From Seison nebaliae (taxonomy: Eukaryota): a stretch of DNA of 20,000 bases. A model generated the notes under the pieces. That model worked only from the letters and a program-made list of their open reading frames with translations. It did not search any database and was not told the DNA's origin. Below are positions 787-17,354 of the stretch, one piece after another. Made by a program: the position numbers and the translations under genes. Position 1 is the first letter of the stretch, and every line of letters starts with the position of its first letter. Location of the stretch: NCBI GenBank assembly GCA_023231475.1, contig JALJEE010001605.1, positions 109,841-129,840 on the forward strand, read 5' to 3'.

Positions 787-2437
787 AATATTTAAATGTA
801 AACTAATCACGATTAACGGATTTGACATAACGAACAAGATGGAGGAATGGTAAAGAAAAGCAAAGGAGAATTGAAAAATAAGAAGAAGATTAATTAATGT
901 AGATGAACAGGAAGGGATCTAATAAAGAGGAAATATTGCTCTCGGCTTTCCAATCATTTCTTTATCTTCCAATTCTCCAATTTTTTCCAGAATTCTCCCC
1001 TAATCGGAATGAGTATACGTGAGGACGAAATGGATGGAAAGGTGTTATTTTAATGAGAATAAATCTCTTCTAGGCATGCTATTATAAGAAAGGTGTCATA
1101 AATTAGCCATTGATATTTAGAGAAATGTCAATGTACGATAATAATGATCGTCTAATCATTTTCTACTTGAGCATTATCTCCCAGCCAAATTCATTATGAA
1201 TCCTTAATCAACTAACTAATAAATAGTTGAATTATGATAATAGAAATTTATTAGAAAACACCCAACAACCCAATAAAGACACCAATATAAATTTCTAAAT
1301 AATATTTTCATATTTCTTTATTCGAACTATGTCGTTTTTGGGAGATAAAAAAAAATTCTTGGAATTATTAATTCAAACTTGTAACATCTATAAAATATTC
1401 GTCAAATGGTAAGAAAAGTTTAGTGGAAGATGGAATAAGGATTCTATTAAACTGAACTGAAGCATTAACTTCCATATAAACAATCGATTCATTCTAATTT
1501 ATTAATTCCATAAATTCATCTGAATGTTAACTTTTTCACCATCAACTACCAAATGTGATTTGAGGAAAGCATAAACATTAGCCGATCTTCAATGGTATCT
1601 ACAGATTTCTGAAAGGATTATTCCATTTTCTTCATGAATCCATTGTCATCGAACGATTCTCTACTATTAAATCAGATTTAAAAATTTATCGAACATAATT
1701 ATAGATGTTGAACGAAGCGTTTAATTAATCTCAATGACAACTATAAAACATTTGAAGAATGGAAAATTATATAAAAAACATTTTTCGGCATCCTATCATT
1801 TTCCGGAATAATTCAGGTGTGAAATGAAGTGACTCCCGAACACAACAAATTTTCACATCTTCCCAACACACTACAATTAAATTCATTCAAAGACATTTCA
1901 TATCTTGAAGTCGGATAGTCTACGATCGAACAATTGTGAAGCTTTCAGTATTTTTAAGTTGATAGAACTTGAAAAATTTTTTATTTACAATTCTTCCTCA
2001 AACAATAATAGGTGAAAGAAATTGATCTTATATTAATTTTGTTATAATATCACGATTGAGAACGTGAATTATTTAAGAAATCTCATAAGTTTATTTTCTT
2101 TTACTATTGGAACTCTCTAAACACAGGAGGAAGGTCCCGATTATAAAATCCAAATCGATTGATCAAAAATAAAGAAAACAAAAGTCAATTAAGTCTCACC
2201 CATTCCTCCAACATATCACCCGTCCATTGTCTGTGTTTGTAGAAAATAAATAAAATTCTCCTTCTTTTTGATGTGAGGGCAATCGATAATTTCCATTTTA
2301 TTTTAACAATCACATAACATTAAATTTTTTGGTTAAGAAAAGACAAATTAATTTATTATTGTTTTTGTCCAACATAGAAAATTGCCGAAAAATAAAATTC
2401 AGAAAACATTTATTAGAATTTACGAAGAATTTTGATC

Positions 2438-3179
2438 CTACTCGGTACATCTCTAGACAAAGGAATTGTTTAAATATAATGAAAAAATTTTTTAAAAATC
2501 TAACTAAAATTGCAGTGACCATATCACCACTCTCTTCTGTGAGGAATTTGCATGCCTTCTTCTTCGACACCTTTCCTTCCTCCATCACCATCTTCAATTC
2601 TTGTGCTGTGAACATTGGTTTGTCGTCTTTCATTGGAATTTCAATATCATCATCACTATCAACATCCGAATCATCATTATCTTTCTTTCCATCATCTTTC
2701 ATGTCACCTGAATTTCCTTTTGGTTCGCTCATCATTTTTGTTGCTTTCGCTAAATCTTCTCTCATATAACGATTAGCGTCTAATTTGGATGTGGCATCTT
2801 CAATTTTCGCTTCACCAAAAACAATATATGAATCCATATTTGGTACTTTGTACACTTCAGCGTTTTTGATAGCGAACGCCGTTGCACCTGGTTTTCGAAT
2901 AGTCACACAATTGTATTGGGGCAATTGTTGTGTCAAGAATTTAGCGAGTGTCTTTTTATGTTTCTTTTCACTTTTGTGCTTCTTTCGATTGCCACTCTTC
3001 TTCGAACGACCAGATTTCTGTTCCACATTCTCCTAAAATTTGAAAATTTTCATAAAAATCTTTTTATAAAATTTCAATGAAACTTTTGTATTTTCTACTT
3101 CGGACAATTTGGCTTCAAGATCTTCCAATTTGCCCGCGATCTCTTCCACATTATCCAAGCTTTCTTCTCCTTTTGCCAT
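2438..3179 (-). CDS. NACA: Nascent polypeptide-associated complex subunit alpha-like (divergent), ~212 aa, 3 exons
   Basis: Exons 3179-3084, 3032-2505, 2452-2438; introns 51 and 52 nt, GTT..TAG. NAC domain motifs VTIRK and VYKVP..DSYIVFGEAKIED. An acidic linker is followed by a C-terminal UBA-like domain (ELKMVMEEGKVSKKKACKFLTEESGDMVTAILRCTE*). Confidence 0.9.
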
Positions 3180-3365
3180 CTTATTTTGAGAGAAAGATAC
3201 AAATAGATTGAAACAAAATATTTAATTGATAAATAATGCAATTTTTATTAACAACAACGAGGTTAGATTGAAAATAATTTGAATAAATTTATCCAAAAAA
3301 AATTATAGAGATTAATTAAAATTTTTGAAATTCAAATTTTAAGCTTTGTAAATAGTGACATTATT

Positions 3366-3803
3366 ATGAGTCATAAAATTACACCAAGAATCATTTATTC
3401 AACAGCTTGTTCAATTTTACGTTATACGAGAAGGAATGACTTAATTCTTCAACCACTTAAATATTCGATTGGACATGAACAATTTAAGAGATTCTCATCG
3501 TCTTCTCATAATTTGCCAGTTGGAAATTGGATAAATTCACAAACTCCTTCAGAATATGAAAGGAAATTAATGATTCATTTCACGTGTAAAGTATGCAATG
3601 AGAGAAATAAGAAAACATTTTCGAAGCATTCTTACGAGAAAGGTGTTGTCATCATTCGATGTGAAGGATGTTCAAATTTACATTTAATTGCTGACAATTT
3701 ACAGTGGTTCTCCGACATCGATCAAAATTCGAACAATATTGAAAAGATTTTGGAGAAGAAGGGTGAATCAGTTGAAAGAAAAGATTCGTTTGAAATTGTT
3801 TAA
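3366..3803 (+). CDS. DNLZ: DNL-type zinc finger protein (Zim17/Tim15/Hep1, mtHsp70 escort), 145 aa, single exon
   Basis: zf-DNL signature FTCKVC..R....FSK.SYEKGVVIIRCEGC.NLHLIADNL.WF. The basic Arg/Ser-rich N-terminus is compatible with a mitochondrial presequence. Confidence 0.95.
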   Translation: MSHKITPRIIYSTACSILRYTRRNDLILQPLKYSIGHEQFKRFSSSSHNLPVGNWINSQTPSEYERKLMIHFTCKVCNERNKKTFSKHSYEKGVVIIRCEGCSNLHLIADNLQWFSDIDQNSNNIEKILEKKGESVERKDSFEIV

Positions 3804-4328
3804 TAAAATTTAAGTTCCAAAAAAAAAAGAAATATATTGAACATTTGTATGTTTTAATTGGAGGAAAGAAATGTATGTGAACAATTCGAATGAACGGGAT
3901 GATTCGTCGATTCTATCATCTAAAAAAATTTGTTTTTAATAAATTTTTTCATTTTCATAAACAGTTGGAGAAGAAGGAATGGTGATATGTGTGGATAGAT
4001 GAATGGATGAAGAAAAAGATATATTGAAGAGAATAAATAATAATAATAAATGTTGCTGTTTAAAGCTAAAATTAAACTGAAAATACTATCAGAAGAGAGA
4101 TTACCACTAATTAATTTAAAATGTCGTTAAACTCTTTAAAAGACAACAAGTGAATAATAATAATAGTCACATAAATTTGGAGATATGGTGATAATCTGAT
4201 GTTTTTTCCTTTCCAAAACAACATATCCCAAATGAAATGACATGTTAGAAAGAAATAAATGTGAATTGTAAACTGAAAATGAAATGAAATTCCAACAATC
4301 TTGAAATTAGAAATAAAGGAAGATTTGT

Positions 4329-6619
4329 TCAATCATTTTTAGTCATACGAATTTCGTTCGCTTCCTCATCCGATTGAGTTCCCATTAATGTGTCGATTAC
4401 TCTGGAAATTCATTGTATAATCGTGAAAAAAAAAGAATAATAATAATAATAACTTTTCAACATTGGGCACGGAACTAGATTGATTGTTTTTCGTTTTACT
4501 ATTGGAATTCTTCTTCTCTGGAATATTCTTATCCATCCATTCTAATTCTTTCTAGAAGTTTAATGGAATGGAAATTTTCATGAAAATTTGAAAAATACGA
4601 ACATCCACTCGACTTTCTTCAAAATTGTCGTCTGCTGATTTATCTCGTTCTTTGTTAATTAATCGTTGTTTGACATTATCAGAATCTAAAAGAAATGAGA
4701 ATTAAATATAAATTGAAAAATAAAACCATAAATTACATGATCCAATTGAATATCTTCCTCTTGATCGTCATCGAGTAATGGTGAGAAAGCATATCTGATG
4801 AAATGAAGATGGAATTGGAACGAAATAGAAGAATGAAACCTTTGATTATTTTTCGACGGTCTCCAAAGAATAATAATGACGAGAAGCATCAAAGAAAATA
4901 ATATTTGCCAAATAGCAGTATCCATCCACATATTCTTCCACGCCATCATACATGCCGTAAAATGATGATTAAATAATGATAATATCATAAAAACAATTGA
5001 AGCTTCCAATATGTTAAATTAGAAATTAATAATTTAAATTATATTCAATTTAATTAACCCAATACACAACATATTAATGTGAATGTAAAATGACGATACA
5101 AATTCAATTTGACGATGTTATTCCGTTCTCTTAAAACCTTAATTGTATGATGTAATGTGGTGAAAATCCAATAACATAAAAATGCATCAGCTCCCGCTAA
5201 AATTAGAATATATTAAAGAAAAAAAATTAATTGACATAATAATTGGAGGAAAGGAAGAACCTAAAGGAATTTGTGAAATTGCTGCTCGTTTCGGATCATT
5301 GGCGAAAACTTTGAAGAAAGCATCGAATAATGAGAGAATGAAATATCCAATTCCACATAACAAGACATTTCTCATTAATTCACCTAATCTCGGTCTAGTC
5401 AATCATATCAATTTGTTCATTTTAGAAAAAGAGATAAATGAATAAACTTCACAATACCATAACCGAAAGCCACTATGAGAATTAAAATACGTGCCAAACT
5501 CCTCTTACCTGCTGAAACGATTTCAGCAGCCAATGCAATTTTTATATCTCTTTTTCCTGTTTTATCCACTTGTTCATATTCAGCTAAATACATGGCCTTT
5601 TCAATCATTCCTATGAGAATGACGAATCCAATCCAAAATTGAATTCTCAACAATTGTCTCCAATATCTCGCTAAATAAAATAGCCAGATAATGGCGAATA
5701 TTGCTGGGAAAATGAATATCATAAAATTTTCATATAAGTCTAATATGAACTGTAAACGCAACAGAGTAGCGAATAGAAGGGAATGAAAATTTTGTTTGAT
5801 GCTGATAAATATCTATTTGTTCTGGGATTCTTTATTTCAATTCGAATATCAATCGGATGATCTTTCCAATCGGATGGTTTTGGTCCATATAATTCGAAAG
5901 TGAATGCATATTCACTCGTCTCACAAACATCTATCAATAACTGCTTTTTCGCATGAACGGATAATATATCGGACTTAATAAATAATTTTGAATAAAATGA
6001 AGAGAAATTTAAAAAGAGAAGGTTGATAAACTTCATTTTTCACTGCTCGAACATTACGAGATTTAGTTAAATTAGATTTGTTGATTTCCGTTCTTTGACA
6101 TGTCCTCTCCATCACTTCAGGTTGATCATAATCACAATTAAAAGTGACTGGTAGAAACAGAATCATGTTTGATGAGGATTCCTTCTTCTTTGTAATAAAA
6201 GAAATTTCAATTGGAAATATTGAAAATAAATAATTTTTTAGAAAGATATTTAACTGGAATTGAAACACTTCGAGAAATATCATTTTGACATTGGATCATT
6301 TCCAAATAATATTTTACTGTAAATTTTAAATTACTCGATCGACAATCGACTAGAGAGAAATTGAAAATGAAGACCAAATAGAAATTATGAGAAATGTAAC
6401 GATCTAATAGGACTCGATCACCAGCAGTAATCGAATGCACGAACTGTTTATTAGTATTCTATCATAGAATTATATAAATGAATTGTAATCAAGTTAAAAG
6501 AAAACGTTTATAATATCTTTAATTTCGAAGTATCCTTGTTCGGGTAACAGACAAGTTGATTGATGGAAAACGAAGACACATAAGAGAACTGCGACATATT
6601 GAGAGAAGAATTTGTTCAT
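4329..6619 (-). CDS. TMEM87: TMEM87-family (GOST / lung seven-TM receptor family) Golgi membrane protein, ~552 aa, 13 exons
   Basis: Exons 6619-6506, 6458-6401, 6349-6255, 6187-6032, 5973-5751, 5703-5448, 5394-5261, 5196-5059, 5002-4840, 4794-4727, 4685-4603, 4551-4454, 4401-4329 join into one open frame (1659 nt). Signal peptide, then family motifs WRQLLRIQFWI, GMIEKA, KRSLARILILIVAFGYGIVKPRLG, NIVKLNLYRHFT, LWRPSKNNQRYAFSPLLDD and ELEWMDKNIP. The acceptors of introns 1 and 3 have in-frame alternatives. Confidence 0.92.
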
Positions 6620-6861
6620 TTCACTTCCACTTGTTCCTCACCAAAATTTTCAACTTATGTGAATATGTAGCAGTTGATTGAAAATAACTGACGATGTGTT
6701 AATAAATCGACCAAATAAATAACACGTCTCATTTAATTAATTTCATTAAGCTTATCATTTAAATCAATTATCTAATTATTATCTCATCATTTTCACTTTC
6801 TACGACTCAGATGAGAAACACAACAATTATTTAATCTTATTAAATTATTTTCATTGTTCAT

Positions 6862-6869
6862 TGACGTCA
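6862..6869. promoter_or_regulatory. Perfect CRE palindrome TGACGTCA about 240 bp upstream of the TMEM87 start codon
   Basis: Exact 8-bp match in the TMEM87 upstream region. Function is untested and the match could be chance. Confidence 0.25.
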
Positions 6870-7184
6870 GATAGTGATGATACCAATACCTAATACCTAA
6901 CACAGATGAAACTTTGTCAACTTATCAAACTTCAAATGGATTACTTTCTGAATGATAAATTATTCTAATCAATTTAATTTAAAAAAATTTAAACTATTAA
7001 AAATTAGCTTGGATAAGAATGGAGAAGTTGAAAATACTTGATTTTACTTGATTAATTATTGGTTTTATTATAAGAACTTCTTTCAAAAAAAAAACATATG
7101 GAGACAACAATTTAATGTCGATTTATATTTATCGGGATAACAAGAGGAAAAGATTTATTTCATTAAAATTTAATGAAATAATTT

Positions 7185-7580
7185 TTAGATATGTGATGGA
7201 TACAACATAACACGAATACGATGTCCCATGGCGTTTGGTGGAAGATTGTGAGAGAATTTTGCTCGCACGCTACCACTATTCCCGTGAACTCTTGTCACTT
7301 TTCCCCAAATAGCACGAACTTTCTTTTGTTTTCCATTTTGGGAGGATTGCGATCTGAGAAATTAGAAATAAAATTTGAATAAGAATTTAAAGAAGGAGAC
7401 GAACCCTTTGGATTTATAGACGAAGACACATCGTTTACCTAAATAAAAGTGAGCGTCTTTCTGGTCATACACACCGTCCAACTTCAACAGAGCTGTGTTT
7501 TCGTGTTGATTTCTCAATCCACGTTTATATCCAGTGAATACACCTTTGACGTAAAGTCTGGTAAATTTATCGTTGGACAT
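7185..7580 (-). CDS. RPL35A: 60S ribosomal protein L35a (eL33), 114 aa, 2 exons
   Basis: Exons 7580-7405 and 7353-7185; 51-nt intron GTTCGT..CAG. Sequence [30 protein letters not shown]...[43 protein letters not shown]. Confidence 0.98.
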
Positions 7581-7881
7581 GATATTTTTGGGAAGAAAAT
7601 AATTATTCTAAAAAATCGAAAAAATCCGTTCAAATGAGAGTTTGATGAATTTGAGAATAAGATACAAAAATCGTGAAAATTACATTATTTAAATAAATTA
7701 TTTCTATACATCACTGTTGTTGTTGGTGAACTTAAAATTTAAATATTCCGAAACTTTTTCAAATTTTCTCATAAAACTTTCTCTCATTTCAAACGAGAAT
7801 TGTCATCTCATTTCAATTTGTATTGATTATTTTAAAATTAAAAATTGTTCAGTCATTCAGTCAACATTGTTGTATAAGACG

Positions 7882-9245
7882 ATGGAAAATGTGCATATAG
7901 TTTGTGCGAAACGTAGCGCAGTAGGTTCATATTATGGATCATTATCCAAATTACCCGCAACTATTATTGGTTCTCAGGTTGTAATTGAAATGAAGGAAGA
8001 ACTGGAATTATCAAATAATGATATATCTGAATTTATTATAGGACAATGTCTTGTCGCTGGTCAAGGTTTGATGTTTTATGGAAATTTTAAATAATTTTTA
8101 GATAATAATTAATTAAATTTTTTAATTTAGGACAAAATCCTGCGAGACAAACAGCACTTCTTTCTGGATTTTCTCATTCGACTAATGCATTCACCATCAA
8201 TATGGTATGTGGTTCTGGATTAAAATCAATCGTTATGGCATTTAATGAAATTCGATTAAATGATGATGGTGGGAAGATCATCATTGCTGGTGGACAAGAG
8301 AATATGAGTTTTACTCCTCATTTAGTTTTCGCGAGAAATCCTCTCAAATTCGGAAATGGAGAACTGATCGATTCAATGAAATTTGACGGTTTAACTGATG
8401 CATTCCATAAAGTGGCGATGGGAGAAACGGCAGAACAGATTGTCGACAAATACAAAATAACGAGAGAAGCGCAAGACATTTTTGCATACAATTCTCATAT
8501 GAAATATTTTGAGAATGGTCAAAATGGATTTAAAGAAGAAATTACTCCAATAAAGTTGATTGATATGAAAAAATTAGAAAAATTTCAACAAGACAATTTA
8601 TTCTCCTCATTATCAATCGTTCCATTTCTAAAAGATGACAATACATCGAAATTGTTTAGTGAGGATGAAGGTCCAAGAAAAGATACTTCGATAGAAAAAT
8701 TGAGAAAATTGAGACCATATTTCCGTCCGAAATCTGGAACAGTCACACCTGGATCATCATCAACTATTAATGATGGTGCTGCTTTCTTATGTTTGACATC
8801 GGAAAATGAAATGAAAAAACGGAATTGGAAGTCATTAGGACGAATCGTGACGTTTGGACAAAGTGGTTGTAATCCAATCATTATGGGCATTGCTCCAGTT
8901 GAAGCGATAAAGAAATGTTTGAAGAAAGCCAATTGGAAATTGAGTGAAGTTGACATATTTGAATTGAATGAAGCATTCGCAGCACAATCATTAGCTGTCA
9001 TTAAAGAATTGGATATTGAATTAAAGAAGGAGAATGATAATTGTTCAGGCGATTGTTCCATTGCTCAAAAAGTTAATATTTGTGGTGGTGCTATTGCAAT
9101 TGGACATCCGATCGGCGCATCGGGAGCTCGCGTTCTAGTCACTTTAATTCATTTAATGAAACGAAAAAATTTAAAGAAAGGAATTGCTGCCTTATGTATT
9201 GGTGGTGGACAAGCTATAGCAGTAGCAATCGAAAATTGTCTGTGA
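7882..9245 (+). CDS. ACAT2: Acetyl-CoA acetyltransferase (thiolase II, probably cytosolic), ~432 aa, 2 exons
   Basis: Exons 7882-8065 and 8131-9245; 65-nt intron GTTTGA..TAG. Motifs GQGQNPARQ, INMVCGSGL (nucleophile Cys), NDGAA, NEAFA, GHPIGASG and LCIGGG. No N-terminal presequence. Confidence 0.93.
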
Positions 9246-9478
9246 TTTCTTCTCATTTTTTCTTCCTATTTATCATATTTATTATTATTAGTTCGTATAT
9301 TTATTATTAGTTTATTTCGAAAAATTTTTAATTGTCGAAACTATTCATTTTACTTCAAATAAAGAGAAAGAAATTAGAAAAATTTTGTTTATGTTGAATG
9401 AAACATGATAAGAAAAAAAATTAATGAAATATTTTAATATCTCGAAACGGAATTAAAACAAATTGACAATTGGACGAC

Positions 9479-9484
9479 TATAAA
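9479..9484 (+). promoter_or_regulatory. Candidate TATA box (TATAAA) of insulin-like gene 1
   Basis: gacTATAAAttg lies about 55 nt upstream of the ATG at 9540. The AT-rich background weakens the call. Confidence 0.3.
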
Positions 9485-9539
9485 TTGAAAGAGAAAAAGA
9501 GATTATGCAGAAAAAATTGAAAATTATTTTTTTTAAATT

Positions 9540-9931
9540 ATGAAATTCTTGATTTTATTAGTTTCCATTTTATTAGTTTGGTGCACCGTCTCCTCAACTA
9601 GTTTGGATAATCCACTACGTCAAATTGAACACCAATCGGCAAAGAAAATATATCGAGCTATGAAGTGTTTAAGGAAGTCATGTAAAGGTCAATCCGTCCA
9701 ATGTTTCATATGTGGCGAAGCGTTTTATAAAGTTTTAGATATATTTGGGAAAAGTTAAAAATTTCTTTCCTTTTTGTAGAAATGACACTTAACTATCTTA
9801 TTATAGAGAAAGTAACTTGTAAGTCAACGGGAAAGAAAGATATTGACTGGTCTTCAGTTAGAGAGCCGAAAACGGATTATTGTTGTCATCATGGATGTAC
9901 GATGAAAGATATTATCAATTTTCTTAATTGA
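9540..9931 (+). CDS. Atypical insulin-like peptide precursor 1, 112 aa, 2 exons
   Basis: Exons 9540-9753 and 9807-9931; phase-1 intron of 53 nt, GTTAAA..TAG. Signal peptide MKFLILLVSILLVWCTVSS, B-chain-like ICGEAFYKVLDIF, A-chain-like TDYCCHHGCTMKDIINFLN*. Confidence 0.82.
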
Positions 9932-10163
9932 GATTAGTTCTAAAAGAAGGGACGGTTAACCGGAAAGAAATCGTTTATTTATAACATTCAAAATTTTCTT
10001 TTTTCGTTTTTTACAATTAAAAATAAAATAATCAATAAAAACCAAATTACGGAATGAATCATAAAAAAATTAGTTTTGAATAAACAAAATAATTTTAAAA
10101 AAAAATACGAAGAATTTCTCATTAAATTATTACCATCATTCTCCAATTCTAAACGATTTCTTT

Positions 10164-10671
10164 TCATTTATGACCATGAGGAAACTTCTCATTTAAATAC
10201 ATCAGTTGCTCCAATGAACATCCACGTTGACAACAAGTTTCCGGTAGTAAAAATTCTTCCTTCCAATCAGCTAAATGATTTCGACGACATTTTTTCGCTA
10301 AAATTTTTTAAAAGAGTTTCAGTTTTAGTTTAATGGAAAGATGAAGAATAGTAACGGTATTTGACGGAATATAAATCTTCGAGAATTAAATATAAAACTT
10401 CGCCACACAAATTACAAGTGGATAGATCAAAGCAAGATCGTTTCAAACATTTTTTTTGTCGTTCGACTCTTAATCTTGTGGACACGCCATGATGGAATGA
10501 GAAACGTCTTGATCGATGTAATGTTAAATTCTCAAACGATAGTCCATTATTAATTTCCTTCAATTGTTTTTGACGTGGTTGATATTTGGTTTGTGCTTGG
10601 AAATGTGTTGTACGTAATGATACGAATGGTATCAGAATTGTTAGAACGACTATTGAGATAGAAAAGTTCAT
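10164..10671 (-). CDS. Atypical insulin-like peptide precursor 2, 149 aa, 2 exons
   Basis: Exons 10671-10356 and 10297-10164; phase-1 intron of 58 nt, GTTACT..TAG. Hydrophobic N-terminus, propeptide ending in furin-type RSRR, B-like LCGEVLYLILEDLY, A-like PETCCQRGCSLEQLMYLN. Confidence 0.85.
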
Positions 10672-11442
10672 TTGACTCAAAATGAATGTTGAATGTTCAA
10701 ATAATTCTAATGTGGTTGTTGAAGATTAATTGAACAGATCTGATGAGTATTTTATGGAGAGACAAGATATGGAAATTTGATATTAGAATATGGATGAAAT
10801 GAATTATATTTATATTGTCATTCGAGATGTGGTGGCAGCGAAGGAAATGACTAATTGAGTGGATATTTAGGTCAATGTTTTCTTTCCAGTTATAAGTAGG
10901 AAAAATGAAAATGAAGAAGAAAGAAAGTTTGTTGAGTTTCGAGAGGTGATAAACGGGAAAATAATCGTGTTCTTTTTCTCAATGGATACAAATGAAATAA
11001 TTCGTTCTCTTTTTCGCTCATCCATCAACTCTCAAGCAACAATAGAGAAATAGTTATCAACAACAAACCACCACGTAGTGATGTCGTTAACAAAAAGAAA
11101 TTAAAATAGATGATGACAAATAACGACTGGACGAGGAAACGATCAACCGGAAATTTATCGACATTTAAGAAAGATGAAGCCGGAAAAATAGAGGAGAAAT
11201 AGAGAAAAGAATAACAAAAGATGCTAATGAAATAGGAAACGATAGCCAAATGTTTTTATCATATGGTTTCCATTATCGTTCAATATTTATGTTGTCTAAA
11301 TATTATTTTTGTATTTCTTTCTTCTTCTTTTATTTATTTATCATTATTCTTCTTCTTCTATCTCATTATTCTCGGATCATTATTAGATGCGGATCATTTT
11401 CCTTAATATATTTGTTCCTCTCATTGTGAGTTGTTTGTCTAG

Positions 11443-12774
11443 TTAATCTTCTTTCAGCCATGAATGTCTTCTCAACTCGGATACTGACCACCGTTTTTCT
11501 GCTTCCTTAATTAAACAACATCGAACGAAATCCTCACAATTCGACAATTCTTTTTCTATTTTTTCGTTCGGTGATTTTCTAAAAAATGAATTTAACTTCC
11601 TTCGATAAATATTTCGTTCAACTGTATTCGATCTAATAAGAGAAGTATTTTGGAATAATTCGTATTCAGGATTTGTCGTTAGAATTTGTTGGTATAATCG
11701 ATCTTTCCAATTCCTCTCATACGTACCGATCGTGTACGGCAGTCGATCAGTTAACATCAAGTAAGTCATGATACCGACACACCAAACATCAGTAGCCGGT
11801 GTCATCATTTGTTCATTGATCACTTCCGGTGAACAATAAGCAGGCGTGCATAAACGTGAATATTGGCGATTGACTTTATAGGCAGGTCCAGCAAATCCGA
11901 AATCTATTAATTTCACTTCTATTTCATTATCGGGAGATAATGGCGATTTTACAAATAACAAATTTTCTAATTTAATATCCAAATGAACTAGACGTTTCTT
12001 ATGTAGATAATCCAAAGCGTCCAACGTCTACCAGAAGAACACGTGGAACTTTAAAATAAGAAATTATTATAAACTTGTCGTAACACTTTCTTAATATTCT
12101 CTATACCTAACAAATAATCTCCAACGGTGCCTCCATTCAAATATTCCATAATCATCATGGCACCATAAGTTGGAGAATAAAGAGATTCGACTATTTGAAT
12201 GATATTTGGATGACGAAGATGTTTAGTTATCTTTTCTTCTTGTCGTGCATCTTGATGAAATCGTTTCCCAAGAACTTTTGCTGCAAATAATTTATTTGTT
12301 CGTTTATTACTCACCTATTAATTTACCAAATTTAAATTAAATTTTTTATCTTTAATATTTAAGTTTCTCTCAAAATGTTAAATAAATTTTCTTAAAACTT
12401 TAACATATTAAAAAAGGAAATAGAAAAATTTCTTTTTTTAAATTTAATTAAAAATTTTAGTACTAAACTAAATATACAGTTCCATTGCCCCCTGTAGCGA
12501 TTTCATCCAAAATTTTATATTTGCTTAAAAATTCATCATTATCTCCTTCATTATCACCGAGAGTTGGATAAGATGGTTTCAAATAAATTTCACGTCGATC
12601 TAATTTATTGGACTTTTTTTCAGATAAAAAATTTTTCGTTTCAAATTTCAACTCTTCTGTTAGAGCGTTGTGGAGAGAAGAACGAATTTTATTGAAATTA
12701 GACAAAACATAAAAAGTTTTATTTAAAAAGGTATTATGGAAATTAAAGGGAACTAAATTACTAAATGAGGACAT
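11443..12774 (-). CDS. Ser/Thr protein kinase, CAMK group (MLCK/DAPK-like), ~376 aa, 3 exons
   Basis: Exons 12774-12469, 12314-12075, 12027-11443; introns 154 and 47 nt. Motifs IATGGNGTVY, FAAK, QEEKI..HLRHPNII, MEYLNGG, VHLDIKLENLL, VKLIDFG, TPAYCSPE and TDVWCVG. Confidence 0.9.
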
Positions 12775-12962
12775 GATCAATCATAAATATACAATTAAAA
12801 TTAAAGGAAAAAACAAAAAAAAAAGTCAACAGAAATATGGATCAAGTTAAATTTCAATTCATCTCAATTTTGATCAATGCTTCACATTTGAAGCATAATA
12901 TTTTTAAATTATAATTGATAATAAATTAAAATAAAAATTATTTGAAATCCAATTATAATCTG

Positions 12963-12976
12963 GTCGCCATGTCAAT
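12963..12976. promoter_or_regulatory. Candidate RFX X-box (GTCGCCATGTCAAT) upstream of CFAP45
   Basis: The left half matches the X-box pattern GTNRCC-AT; the right half has 2 mismatches to GGCAAC. It is a GC-rich motif in an AT-rich spacer, 50 nt before a ciliary gene. Confidence 0.4.
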
Positions 12977-13026
12977 AAAAACAATTTGTGATCAAAACAT
13001 TCTGGGTTCTTGTTATCAAACTGGAC

Positions 13027-15031
13027 ATGGAGTTGCAACAACGTAACATCGTCAGATCGACAAGTACGTCAAGTAAACTTAATCCGAAGAGGAATGGCGC
13101 GATGAGTCGATATCGTTGTATTAGTAAAACATCGAATTGTGACGAGTCGTTGTTTGGGAAACCAAAACGATTGATCGATGCTGAGAATATGCGACAGAAA
13201 CAAGCCAGTCAGAAATTGCCTGACATTACAAGAACAATAGAAACGACTCATAGACCAAGACAACAGGTTTCGTCAGCAGCTCCGTTTGCATTACATGAAG
13301 ATGAATTGCAACGATCTCAAACGTTATCACCTGAAAGGAAATATGTGACTCATATTACTAAAAACTTAATCAGAAATATTTTGTTAACAATTTTCTTATT
13401 ATTTGAAGAGTTCTTATTGACTTAATGAATTTTCAGAATACCTGAAGATCCAAGTGAACAGACGGCAGTTATCGATTCACAAGCATTGAATCGTCTAACT
13501 AATCTCTCAAAAATGAACACAGCGGAAATGAATAAAATGAAGTTGCGAGAATCCCAACAATATACTAGTGAATTGCAGGAAGAATTATTAAAGCGACGAC
13601 AACAATTGCAAGAATTAGACATTGAAAGGAATAAACAAATGAAAGAATTTAACTTCGATGATAATGCAGAAATTTTGAAGAAAGCTGATGAATTGAGAGA
13701 GAATGATGATGAAGAAATCAGACAGTTGAACGAAGTTCATCAACATTAATTTTGAAGTAAAGTCATTGAATTTCTTTTAGTTGATTTTGAATGCAAAAAT
13801 TCAGGCAATACGCGACGCTCAAATAGCCGAAAAGCAGGAAATCGAACTGGAATTGAAAAACGAAGGAAGACGAATGGATTCGATTATGGAGAAGAATCGT
13901 CTCCAACAAATTTCGATGCATGAACAATTGGAAGAGTTGAAAAAACGACAAGCTCGAGTTAAAATTTTTTGGTAAGTTCTCAAAGAAAATTAGTTGGAAC
14001 TATTTAGGAAGGAGCTAGTGAAATTATGAAACAAATTGGAATGAATGAACAAGAGAGATTGATTAAAGAAGAAATTAAGGAACAAGAGAATCAATTAATG
14101 AGGAAACATTTGGAGAAATTGCGAGAAGAAGATTTCAAAGATATGGAACAGAAAAAATTGAAGCAAAAAGGAATTGCCGTTAGTTTCGAAATTATGAATT
14201 GTATGAGAATTATCAAATTCAATTTTATCATAGAGTGATTTAAAGAAAGTTAATGCTGAAATTGAGAAAGTGAAAGAGAAGAAGGCTGAATTAGATCGAA
14301 TAGAAGATATGAAAGGTTTATTTCATTTTAGACTTTATAAATTAATTGATATTTTAGTAATGCAATATTTGAATGAAAGAGCTGAAAAGGAAGCAGCTAA
14401 AGAACAAGAAATGTTAGAGAAAAAATTAGAAAAGGAAAAAGAAATAGCGAAACTTCGTGCTCAACAAGAACGTGCTAAAGATGTTCAAGCTGAGCGAGAT
14501 GCATTGCGGGCTAAAAGAGATCAAGAGGAACGTGAACGTGAATGGCGGAGACAAGAGAAGATCGACGCAATTAAACGAAAGGAGAAAAATGAACAATTGA
14601 GATTAACAAGAGAGTGGCAAATAAAGAAGAAGCAAGAAAATGTGGTTGACGAAATTCGAAGAAATGAATTTGAATTTAAGAAAACTCTCGCTAATCAAAT
14701 AGAATCAGAAATCAAATTGAAAAAAGAAGAAGATGAAAATAGGAAGAAAAACTTAAAATATCGAAATGATCTCGCCTCCCAAATACGTCAAAATGAAGAA
14801 GTTTATTAATTGTTTTAAATACAGTTTCTATATTTTCTTTTAAAATCTTTCATATTCTAGTCATTTATCAATTCAAAGAAGTCATATTTTGAAGAAGGTA
14901 GTAAATTGAATGAAGAAACAAGAATGAGGAAGATGAGAATTGAAGCTATTAAAAAGAAGAAATTGGATGAATTGAGAAAAAGTGGAATTCCTGCGAAGTA
15001 CTGCAATGAAATTGAGAGGAAGATTATGTAG
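13027..15031 (+). CDS. CFAP45: Cilia- and flagella-associated protein 45 (CCDC19), ~565 aa, 7 exons
   Basis: Exons 13027-13382, 13437-13734, 13781-13957, 14008-14178, 14234-14315, 14358-14800, 14861-15031 (1698 nt open). Recognisable motifs: RYR...S.CDESLFG, LIPEDPS, ILNAKIQAIRDAQIAEK, EKEKEIAKLRAQQERAKDVQAERDALRAKR and KKKLDELRKSGIPAKYCNEIERK. Confidence 0.93.
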
Positions 15032-15454
15032 AAGTGTTTGGTATCAGAAATTCTATTTCACCAAATTCACCGTCAACTTTAATTAAAAAATACTTTGGAT
15101 AAATTAATATTTATATTTTGTCGATGGAATAAAATTAAGTTAATCGTTACCATAATAAATATTAATAAGTTTATCATCTTACGATTAGATTGCAGGTTAC
15201 CCGTTATGTAGAAGTACGATAATACAAAGTTCCATAAAATGGCCGAACATTTGAAATGAATTGGTCGAGAATTGGACCAGTAAATTAATCATCTATAATA
15301 ATAAATTAAGGTCACGTAGAGGTATCAGATTAACATAAAGTAGTCATGAGAACAAGAGATGGTCGGAAATTTGGAAGAATGTTCTTCTCTTTTCAGGCAT
15401 TCCATTATTTCGACCGACTGAACAATTAATCAGAAAGAAAATCATTTAAATGAC

Positions 15455-16772
15455 ATGAAATTTTTATCATTACTTTTCTTTCTACTTATCGGTGTACAAC
15501 TCGAAACTAATTTTGACCATGAAAAGCTAAAATATACATCTAAGCAGAATTCCAAGAAAACTGTAAGGGAGAAACCTAGATGGATGAAGAAACGTATTTT
15601 GGTTAATATTTAATCGATATACATATTATATGGGATAACTTAATTTTTTTCATCAGATTAGTGGCGGAGCAGGATTTATTGGATCTCATTTAACCGACTA
15701 TTTAATGCTTGCTGGTCATGATGTGATAGTTGTAGATAATCTGTTTACTGGATCATTAGACAATGTTGCACATTGGATATCGCATCCAAATTTCCATTTC
15801 GTTAATCATGATATATCCGAACCATTCTACCGAGAAGTCGATGAAATTTATCATCTAGCATCACCTGCATCTCCTCCTCATTACCAATGGAATCCTATAA
15901 AAACTTTAAAAGCTAATACTTTAGGAACATTTCATCTCTTAGGAGTCGCTAAGAGAAATCGTGCAAGATTTTTATTAGCATCCACCAGTGAAGTGTACGG
16001 AGATCCATTGGAGCATCCGCAAACAGAAGATTATTGGGGGAATGTAAATCCAATTGGGTCACGCTCGTGCTATGATGAAGGGAAAAGGAGTGCCGAAGCA
16101 ATAGCTTATGCATATAACCATCAAGAGAATGTGGATGTTAGAGTTGCCAGAATCTTTAATACATATGGACCACGAATGCATATGAATGATGGACGAGTCG
16201 TATCTAATTTCATAGTTCAATCATTGAAAAATAAAAATATAACGGTTCATTCATCTTCCTACTTCCATTCAAAACGTTTAATTATAATTACCGTTAGATT
16301 TATGGCGATGGAAGTTTTACTAGATCTTTCCAATTCGTAACTGATCTGGTAAAAGGCTTGGTCTTATTAATGGAATCGAATTATACACAACCCGTTAATT
16401 TAGGTAATCCGAACGAACGAACTATATTGGACTTGGCGAAAAGAATCAAAAATTTAATACGTTAGAAAATTTAAGTTCATATTTTTTGTCTTCAACTAAC
16501 TACAATTAACAATAGCTAAATCGAAGAGTAAAATTTCTTTCGAATCTCATATCGCTGATGATCCTCAAAAAAGAAGGCCTGATATTTCGTTAGCAAAAAA
16601 AGTTTTGAACTGGTTCCCAACAATTCATTTGGACCAAGGACTTCAGGAGACCATTAAATATTTCAAAAAACAATTGAAACAACAACAGAAAACATCAACA
16701 ATTACGACGAATATTGGTGATAATTCAGATGATAAGAAACAAAATGTTTTATGGATATCTACTTTATCCTAA
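15455..16772 (+). CDS. UXS1: UDP-glucuronic acid decarboxylase 1 (UDP-xylose synthase), ~384 aa, 4 exons
   Basis: Exons 15455-15601, 15657-16244, 16298-16460, 16516-16772. N-terminal hydrophobic anchor, KRILISGGAGFIGSHL, IYHLASPASP, ASTSEVYGDP, RSCYDEGKR, RIFNTYGPRMHMNDGRVVSNF and DDPQKRRPDI. Confidence 0.97.
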
Positions 16773-17096
16773 GCAGTATAAATATTATTATTTGATCCTC
16801 TTCCATACTATGCATTCCAACTTAGTTTCCAATAATTATTTTAATGTTAAATATAATTCATTACTTCGACTTTTTAAACAGTATTTTCTTTTTTATTGGT
16901 ACTTACGTAGTATTTGAAGTTAAAATATAATACAGTAAATAATGTATTGTTGAAGTATTTTAGCGTTATGTGAGATTTCCCATTAATTATCGCTTTTGAT
17001 ATAGAACCATAATAGATCAGATAAAGTCATCGTATGGCTAAACGAAGCCATGTCGAAGGAGTCAGTTAAAGTAATCCTAGTATATAATACATACTA

Positions 17097-17354
17097 TCAT
17101 TCGTTATAACAAATGAGATCTCTATACCAAACCAATTTGATGATCACTACAGCAATGATCCAGATGATCTTGTTCCAATGAAAAATACGAAATGTAATTG
17201 CAAAAAAATTGGCAATCAGAAGAGAAAGAAAACCTCGTTCGAGAGTTAAATCTACCGACTCTGATAAAGCACTGATTACAAACATTCCTAAGATCCCGAT
17301 GTTTTCTGGAATTGAAATTTGGTCAGGATATTTCAAAAACATTTTAACCATCAT
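17097..17354 (-). CDS. Hypothetical small membrane protein (uncertain)
   Basis: 85-aa ATG-initiated ORF with 2-3 hydrophobic stretches. A 56-nt GTTTGG..TAG intron (17132-17077) is possible and would end the protein KLDYFN*. No family recognised. Confidence 0.25.
   Translation of the reverse strand: MMVKMFLKYPDQISIPENIGILGMFVISALSESVDLTLERGFLSLLIANFFAITFRIFHWNKIIWIIAVVIIKLVWYRDLICYNE

Follow-up and report, generated by a model that had tools for sequence, protein, structure and literature searches.

Does Seison nebaliae, a tiny relative of rotifers that lives on crustaceans, still recognize the 5' ends of its introns in the way that other animals do? The question is raised by a 20,000-nucleotide (nt) stretch of its genome (GenBank assembly GCA_023231475.1, contig JALJEE010001605.1, positions 109,841 to 129,840 of the forward strand; hereafter the window, numbered from its first letter). 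A previous reading of the DNA letters (referred to as the sequence-only reading) reconstructed 29 introns in one ~14-kb region of the window, in nine genes on both strands, and noted that all of them start with GTT. It proposed a non-canonical 5' splice-site (donor) code, with recognition shifted onto T at intron position +3 through a changed U1 5' end or U6 box or through altered specificity of U1C, LUC7, or PRP8. In animals, few splicing signals are as stable as the purine at +3. Following up this proposal, we find the GTT pattern to hold throughout, and the splicing machinery of Seison likely has an altered mode of recognizing intron starts.

A fixed T at the third intron position

Each of the 29 donors, in nine genes and on both strands, is GTT and is present in the sequence with the hexamer that the sequence-only reading gave for it, and its position counts were reproduced (T at +3 in 29/29, G at +4 in 0/29, G at +5 in 6/29, and G at the last exon position, -1, in 9/29). 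Excising the introns from the window leaves nine open reading frames. With 10 genes in the window, there are about three introns per gene; 28 of the 29 are within 41-67 nt and one is 154 nt (median 53 nt). All have GT-AG termini, with TAG, CAG, and AAG as the 3' ends of 20, 6, and 3 introns respectively, so that "non-canonical" is apt for the +3T consensus and not for the termini.

T accounts for 0.477 of intron interiors, against which T at +3 in 29/29 introns has a p of 4.8e-10 (3.7e-7 for the 20/20 introns of the NCBI models described below). Among non-donor GT dinucleotides on the sense strand, 140/409 are GTT, from which the donors differ with a Fisher p of 2e-13. The fixation of T at +3 is thereby confirmed as real at the DNA level and well beyond chance, and 29/29 implies a genome-wide +3T share above ~90% at 95% confidence if the introns are independent. 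The +3 purine of the ordinary metazoan GTRAG donor is found in 0/29 Seison donors. Minor (U12-type) donors carry A at +3 plus a long minor consensus, and this A is likewise found in 0/29.

The remaining donor positions yield the consensus GTT-H-R. Position +4 is at background (A12, T11, C6, G0; purine 12/29), and its lack of G, although correctly counted, is not a signal (p 0.17) because the introns hold just 6% G. Similarly, the count of G at -1 shows no enrichment over exon G content (p 0.16), while T is depleted there (2/29, p 0.007) and A is the commonest letter (13/29). G is indeed infrequent at +5, yet this position is constrained, being rich in purines (21/29, p 0.001; A 15, G 6) and depleted in T (4/29, p 2e-4). 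Position +6 is again at background (T 16/29, G 1/29). Before the 3' ends, the branch-point motif YTRAY was found in 13/29 introns vs. 14.8 +/- 2.7 in shuffles, i.e., without enrichment.

Evidence for the intron boundaries

Three Seison nebaliae proteins at NCBI, SNEBB_005070 (TMEM87), SNEBB_005076 (CFAP45), and SNEBB_005068 (NAC domain), match the window residue for residue after intron removal. In an exact spliced search permitting GT/GC-AG and AT-AC ends, TMEM87 and CFAP45 (P0001 and P0009 respectively) had one parse each, with 12 and 6 introns, and the NAC-domain protein (P0279) added 2 further introns, giving a total of 20/20 GTT for the NCBI models, which may themselves be predictions. 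The gaps in the SNEBB locus numbering correspond to one gene (DNLZ) and to five genes (RPL35A, a thiolase, two Cys-rich peptides, and a kinase), all of which are seen in the window, and therefore apparently no gene was missed there.

For the 21 introns of TMEM87, CFAP45, and UXS1, we also scored in-frame GT/GC-AG alternatives at up to 45 nt against profiles from non-Seison proteins. The best-scoring option had a GTT donor in 21/21 introns and was the exact donor of the sequence-only reading in 19 of them; in 17, GTT was either the sole choice or ahead of any non-GTT option by at least 6 bits. Given three outgroup proteins in turn, a spliced aligner without a donor model found all six CFAP45 introns every time; it likewise found TMEM87 introns 5-10 with either of the two proteins used and, taking two proteins together, the three UXS1 introns. 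In total, 20 introns have homology support independent of the donor sequence, including those of RPL35A and the thiolase and the second kinase intron.

The twelve introns of TMEM87 (coding sequence, CDS, 6619-4329, - strand) are all part of the NCBI model. Intron 1 (6459..6505, 47 nt, GTTTTC) has no in-frame non-GTT option; it is followed by intron 2 (6350..6400, 51 nt, GTTACA), intron 3 (6188..6254, 67 nt, GTTAAA), whose best alternative is GTT too and whose sole non-GTT option is at -8.1 bits, and intron 4 (5974..6031, 58 nt, GTTTAT). Homology scoring and the spliced aligner both support introns 5 (5704..5750, 47 nt, GTTCAT), 6 (5395..5447, 53 nt, GTTTAT), 7 (5197..5260, 64 nt, GTTCTT), 8 (5003..5058, 56 nt, GTTAAT), 9 (4795..4839, 45 nt, GTTTCA), and 10 (4686..4726, 41 nt, GTTTTA). 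The last two are intron 11 (4552..4602, 51 nt, GTTCGT) and intron 12 (4402..4453, 52 nt, GTTATT).

In CFAP45 (CDS 13027-15031, + strand), the NCBI model, homology scoring, and the spliced aligner agree on introns 1 (13383..13436, 54 nt, GTTAAC), 2 (13735..13780, 46 nt, GTTCAT), 3 (13958..14007, 50 nt, GTTAAA), 4 (14179..14233, 55 nt, GTTAGT), 5 (14316..14357, 42 nt, GTTTAT), and 6 (14801..14860, 60 nt, GTTTAT). Homology scoring and the aligner likewise support the introns of UXS1 (CDS 15455-16772, + strand) at 15602..15656 (55 nt, GTTAAT), 16245..16297 (53 nt, GTTCAT), and 16461..16515 (55 nt, GTTAGA), and the NCBI model places those of the NAC-domain gene (CDS 3179-2438, - strand) at 3033..3083 (51 nt, GTTTCA..TAG) and 2453..2504 (52 nt, GTTAGA..TAG).

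Single introns in the other genes were compared with known structures and profiles. In RPL35A (CDS 7580-7185, - strand; intron 7354..7404, 51 nt, phase 2, GTTCGT), exon 1 reaches residue 55 of eL33 in PDB entry 7oya and the join is gap-free over residues 56-58; in the thiolase (CDS 7882-9245, + strand; intron 8066..8130, 65 nt, phase 1, GTTTGA), the join is without a gap at residue 61 of PDB 4o99. Intron 2 of the kinase (CDS 12774-11443, - strand; intron at 12028..12074, 47 nt, GTTTAT) leaves positions 107 to 108 of the Pkinase profile contiguous. Kinase intron 1 (12315..12468, 154 nt, GTTTAG) is placed by the reading frame and the glycine-loop motif, and the introns of the two Cys-rich genes by the reading frame. 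These are at 9754..9806 in gene 1 (CDS 9540-9931, + strand; GTTAAA), with an acceptor at 9806 (53 nt) or 9779 (26 nt), and at 10298..10355 in gene 2 (CDS 10671-10164, - strand; 58 nt, GTTACT). In gene 1, the donor is GTT across the frame-keeping options inspected by eye, whichever acceptor is used.

Five sequencing runs containing the window behave as DNA, with X1 and X2 spanning the introns without joints, and no contigs of X6 and X7 aligned to the window. The main contigs of X1 and X2 show zero differences from the window over positions 2300-17000. X1 and X2 also hold low-depth contigs that are 85-88% alike and point to a second lineage or a relative in both samples; Seison nebaliae is described as comprising two lineages in the accessible part of PMC8351084. 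In one of the diverged contigs the alignment extends through +6 of the donor at 10355, and another begins at the acceptor AG at 14859, which is a weak hint that intron boundaries are kept in the relative.

Ordinary donor motifs are passed over

Within CFAP45 intron 3, a canonical competitor is available. The motif G|GTAAGT (13971..13977, + strand) lies 14 nt downstream of the GTT donor, and an alternative AG (14017-14018), 11 nt beyond the used AG, would complete an in-frame intron of 47 nt. This motif, with its GT at 13972, is a good match to ordinary U1 and U6 small nuclear RNAs (snRNAs), yet against profiles of non-Seison homologues it falls short of the GTT donor by 10.8 bits, and the NCBI model also picks GTT. 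As far as DNA-level evidence at a single site can tell, this competition gives the clearest indication that Seison does not prefer the ordinary consensus. Across the sense strands, 11 canonical-like GT motifs are all unused, though decoys of this kind are found in the exons of ordinary animals too; strong ordinary donor motifs stand unused in coding exons at 12314 (-), 5508 (-), and 8205 (+), and exon 2 of the kinase starts AG|GTGAGT.

Donors in rotifers and other animals

A comparison of donors with related taxa had been proposed by the sequence-only reading. We retrieved 54 metagenome loci with a rotifer CFAP45 alignment, which had no matches among genome contigs, and ran 27 of them through the donor-blind aligner, after excluding near-duplicates and transcript-like loci that lack introns (L017 was dropped as a copy of L018). 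The taxa, inferred from best matches, include a single monogonont-like locus (L033; 2 introns, both GTA) and no acanthocephalan locus, and the CFAP45 sets repeat orthologous positions. Eight rotifer-like loci contain 21 introns, 15 of them well flanked, with A12, T2, and G1 at +3 (T3 among all 21), and the other animal loci contain 47 introns, 38 well flanked, with A24, G11, and T3. A purine at +3 is thus found in 13/15 rotifer-like and 35/38 other animal introns vs. 0/29 in Seison. G at +5 is found in 25/38 introns of the other animals vs. 6/29 in Seison (p 4e-4).

From the bdelloid-like locus L018, 18 junctions of other genes, chosen by eye as the longest open option (with Pfam continuity supporting the kinesin and alpha-galactosidase exons), were combined with its 7 CFAP45 introns. 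GTT donors make up 4/25 of this set vs. 29/29 in Seison (Fisher p 2e-11), whereas G at +5 (10/25 vs. 6/29) does not differ significantly (p 0.15), and the L018 donors are often GTAAAT or GTAATA. GTT is therefore a minority among the rotifer-like (2/15) and L018 (4/25) introns. The proposed shift onto +3T holds as a shift of the consensus, confined to Seison among the rotifer and animal loci sampled; the weak +5G does not hold as a unique trait. Judging from these sequences, weak +5G is partly common with bdelloid-like rotifers and may be a wider rotifer trait, while the fixed +3T is not.

In CFAP45, three of the six introns coincide in alignment column and phase with introns of rotifers, and one of these also with an intron in a distant animal locus. 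At the position of intron 1, a bdelloid-like locus has GTAAAT; at that of intron 2, L018 has GTTGAG and the distant animal (L061) has GTGGGC; at that of intron 4, six rotifer-like loci all have GTA or GTG. Since these positions are common with rotifers, the introns are old and their donors were converted in place. Introns 3 and 5 (13958-14007 and 14316-14357) are 2 nt and 1 nt, respectively, from bdelloid-like and other animal positions (same column, other phase), which may reflect a sliding of introns in connection with the donor change.

Search for U1 snRNA genes

An Rfam scan of the window gave no matches. Our U1 pattern search matched 15 loci in genome contigs, of which Rfam identifies 5 as U1, and none in viral contigs; with a looser U1 pattern, the loci checked yielded no further contig carrying U1, and viral contigs gave 88 candidate matches. 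Five bacterial assemblies (loci L001, L002, L004, L009, and L012) contain short contigs with an animal U1 snRNA gene, i.e., eukaryotic contamination. One of these contaminants, the invertebrate-like U1 of L009, was used as bait and aligned with one contig per run in X1, X2, X4, and X5, over bait positions 297-358 (62 letters, 11 differing); the loose end of the contig carries U1 stem-loop II letters. The depth of this contig is 5.4 and 12.6 in X1 and X2, vs. 14 and ~28 for the window contigs (0.39-0.45), and its flank is GC-rich. By depth and flank, the U1 caught in this way may come from a different organism present in the sample.

A candidate mechanism and its alternatives

In the established pairing, donor +3 faces U1 position 6. 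An absolute rule at one position, together with a rejected canonical donor, fits a base-pair swap, and hence we favor a change at this U1 position. We propose, with a probability of roughly 45%, that the 5' end of Seison U1 snRNA has changed to carry A opposite +3, reading GUU and rejecting GUA and GUG. The lineage would already have been weak at +5G, like the bdelloid-like loci, so that pairing relied on few positions. U1 position 6 would then have changed from U to A, perhaps via a phase with two U1 variants, with existing donors drawn to GUU and a +3T bias that would extend genome-wide. Downstream, +3U may be tolerated through a wobble pair with unchanged U6 G44, which faces donor +3 (PMC11732430), and scant donor information may be enough because the introns are ~50 nt and AU-rich (intron definition). 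If U1 position 4 had also changed, from C to U, A or G at +5 would be accounted for, as a post hoc fit to the data. The single U-to-A change raises mean U1 pairing from 5.14 to 6.14 by construction; pair counts cannot separate the models, with true donors exceeding the 140 decoy GTTs under each. A partial precedent is Entamoeba, also with +3U, whose U1 has ACAAAC for ACUUAC and whose U6 ACAGA is unchanged (10.1101/2022.06.08.495308, accessible part).

The observations that weigh against a changed U1, or against the uniform pattern on which it builds, are considered here with the explanations that they would favor. The bias might be local, or result from how the introns were chosen, by a self-trained annotation or by a reader picking among AT-rich GTs: the introns are known at the DNA level, the NCBI models are possibly predictions, and GTT is also the commonest non-donor GT. 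Four TMEM87 introns have weak or undecided homology scores, namely introns 2 (2.8 bits), 4 (3.2 bits), 11 (2.2 bits above GTATTT at 4598, which the spliced aligner preferred with one of the two outgroup proteins), and 12 (undecided, with the NCBI model as its support), and each of the five CFAP45/TMEM87 runs of the aligner contained a spurious non-GTT intron, at a divergent N-terminus. However, donor-blind scoring ranks GTT first in every intron scored, 17 of them decisively, the same aligner yields a majority of GTA/GTG donors for rotifer and other loci, and nine genes on both strands agree, so we regard such an artefact as improbable. Even less credible is an origin of the introns through recent copying of a single GTT-ended, intron-generating element, which would suit the uniform start, the narrow length range, and the three CFAP45 introns without an exact counterpart position. 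It is disfavored by the introns at rotifer column and phase (with two more 1-2 nt away) and by the lack of long intron-intron matches, the only common sequence being A/T-rich matches of 11-19 nt.

Given a genuine shift, +3 might instead be read by something other than a changed U1. Shifted-register GUU donors, often after an exon not ending in G, were reportedly described by Roca and Krainer in 2009. An ordinary U1 one base out of register, or with +2/+3 bulged, would pair +3U with U1 A7 by default, and the frequent A at -1, the purines at +5, and a mean pairing of 5.38 (shifted) or 5.6 (bulged) vs. 5.14 in register, with donors beating the 140 decoys, would be in line with this. Such donors retain a displaced RAG(U) and hence G at +6, and this signature is absent in Seison (+6G 1/29, GTTRAG 0/29, +4 purines at background); nor would the shifted register explain the absence of GTA and GTG donors, and we consider it unlikely. 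The main alternative, though less probable than a changed U1, is that U1 is ordinary or minor in its role and that +3U is imposed later, when the donor passes to U6, by alterations in the ACAGA box (G opposite +3, perhaps C opposite +5) or in proteins (PRP8, SNRNP27K, U1C, LUC7). As far as the accessible texts go, commitment has been argued to lie at U5/U6 rather than U1 (PMC11732430), U1 has stayed ordinary in the majority of lineages with atypical donors, in cases at +4 (10.1101/2022.06.08.495308), and Fritillaria altered donor recognition via snRNA methylation and U2AF paralogues with the core preserved (PMC13326754). Within our data, A outnumbers G at +5 (15 vs. 6), which ordinary U6 pairing does not favor, and the U1 caught by bait, aligned across the bait 5' end, could be ordinary if it is Seison's. 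On the other hand, Entamoeba retained ACAGA despite +3U, and an unchanged U6 takes +3A elsewhere, which leaves the absence of GTA unexplained.

Neighboring genes

The two Cys-rich genes lie tail to tail (9540-9931, +, and 10671-10164, -), each with a hydrophobic N-terminus, and putatively encode secreted peptides. Their cysteines resemble the insulin-like pattern, without the last A-chain and the second B-chain cysteine and with extra cysteines upstream. The label "insulin-like" given by the sequence-only reading was not borne out, as the exon pieces searched had no Pfam insulin match. A DNL zinc-finger gene (3366-3803, +) has no introns and is head to head with the NAC-domain gene. Beyond UXS1, a possible small gene start (17035-17250, +) with a candidate GTCAGT donor falls outside the 29 introns, an open frame at 18357-17494 (-) has a weak Ulp1/C48 protease match (E 5e-5), and a reverse-transcriptase frame at 19873-18959 (-; RVT_1, E 2e-20) in GC-richer DNA is probably a non-long-terminal-repeat retrotransposon.

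Comparison with known donor shifts

The following comparisons draw on the accessible parts of the articles cited. Like Seison, Entamoeba has nearly fixed +3U in a lineage with the major spliceosome, where U6 G44 is able to accept U. However, Entamoeba is intron-poor with a strict hexamer (GUUUGU in 87.9-89.5%; 10.1101/2022.06.08.495308), while Seison has 29 introns in 10 genes, shows +4T in 11/29, +5G in 6/29, and +6T at background, and contains no exact GTTTGT. Fritillaria borealis is likewise an animal lineage with rewired splice-site recognition, but 95% of its introns escape GT-AG, which is tied to U2AF paralogues and snRNA methylation (PMC13326754), whereas Seison retains GT-AG and alters +3. 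In the +4U lineages linked to METTL16/SNRNP27K (PMC10581693, PMC11732430), a single donor position also shifts with the spliceosome, at +4 rather than +3; Seison +4 is at background.

In the full-text literature searched, which lay outside subscription journals, bioRxiv supplements, and intron databases, we found no report of GTT donors in Seison or any other animal. In the main text available for the Seison genome paper, "splic" occurs once and "snRNA" is absent, and its two supplements had no matches for the terms tried. The Seison shift belongs to a known kind of change, lineage-wide donor transformation, and is apparently the first in an animal. More tentatively, and at slightly less than even odds in our judgment, Seison would be the first animal in which a change in a core snRNA (U1 position 6 or the U6 ACAGA box) made GUU the obligatory donor of every intron by in-place conversion; G|GUAAGU would no longer work, and the switch would have taken place in a genome rich in introns and with signals that are weak in other respects.

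Implications

Published donor transformations come mostly from intron-poor microbes with a strict consensus. In Seison, an animal with about three introns per gene, old introns have switched to +3U, and one may ask how a reader and its thousands of sites can change in concert. The case would also distinguish whether U1 or U6 reads +3. For practical work, Seison donors will be misplaced by gene finders and splice aligners that were trained on GTRAG.

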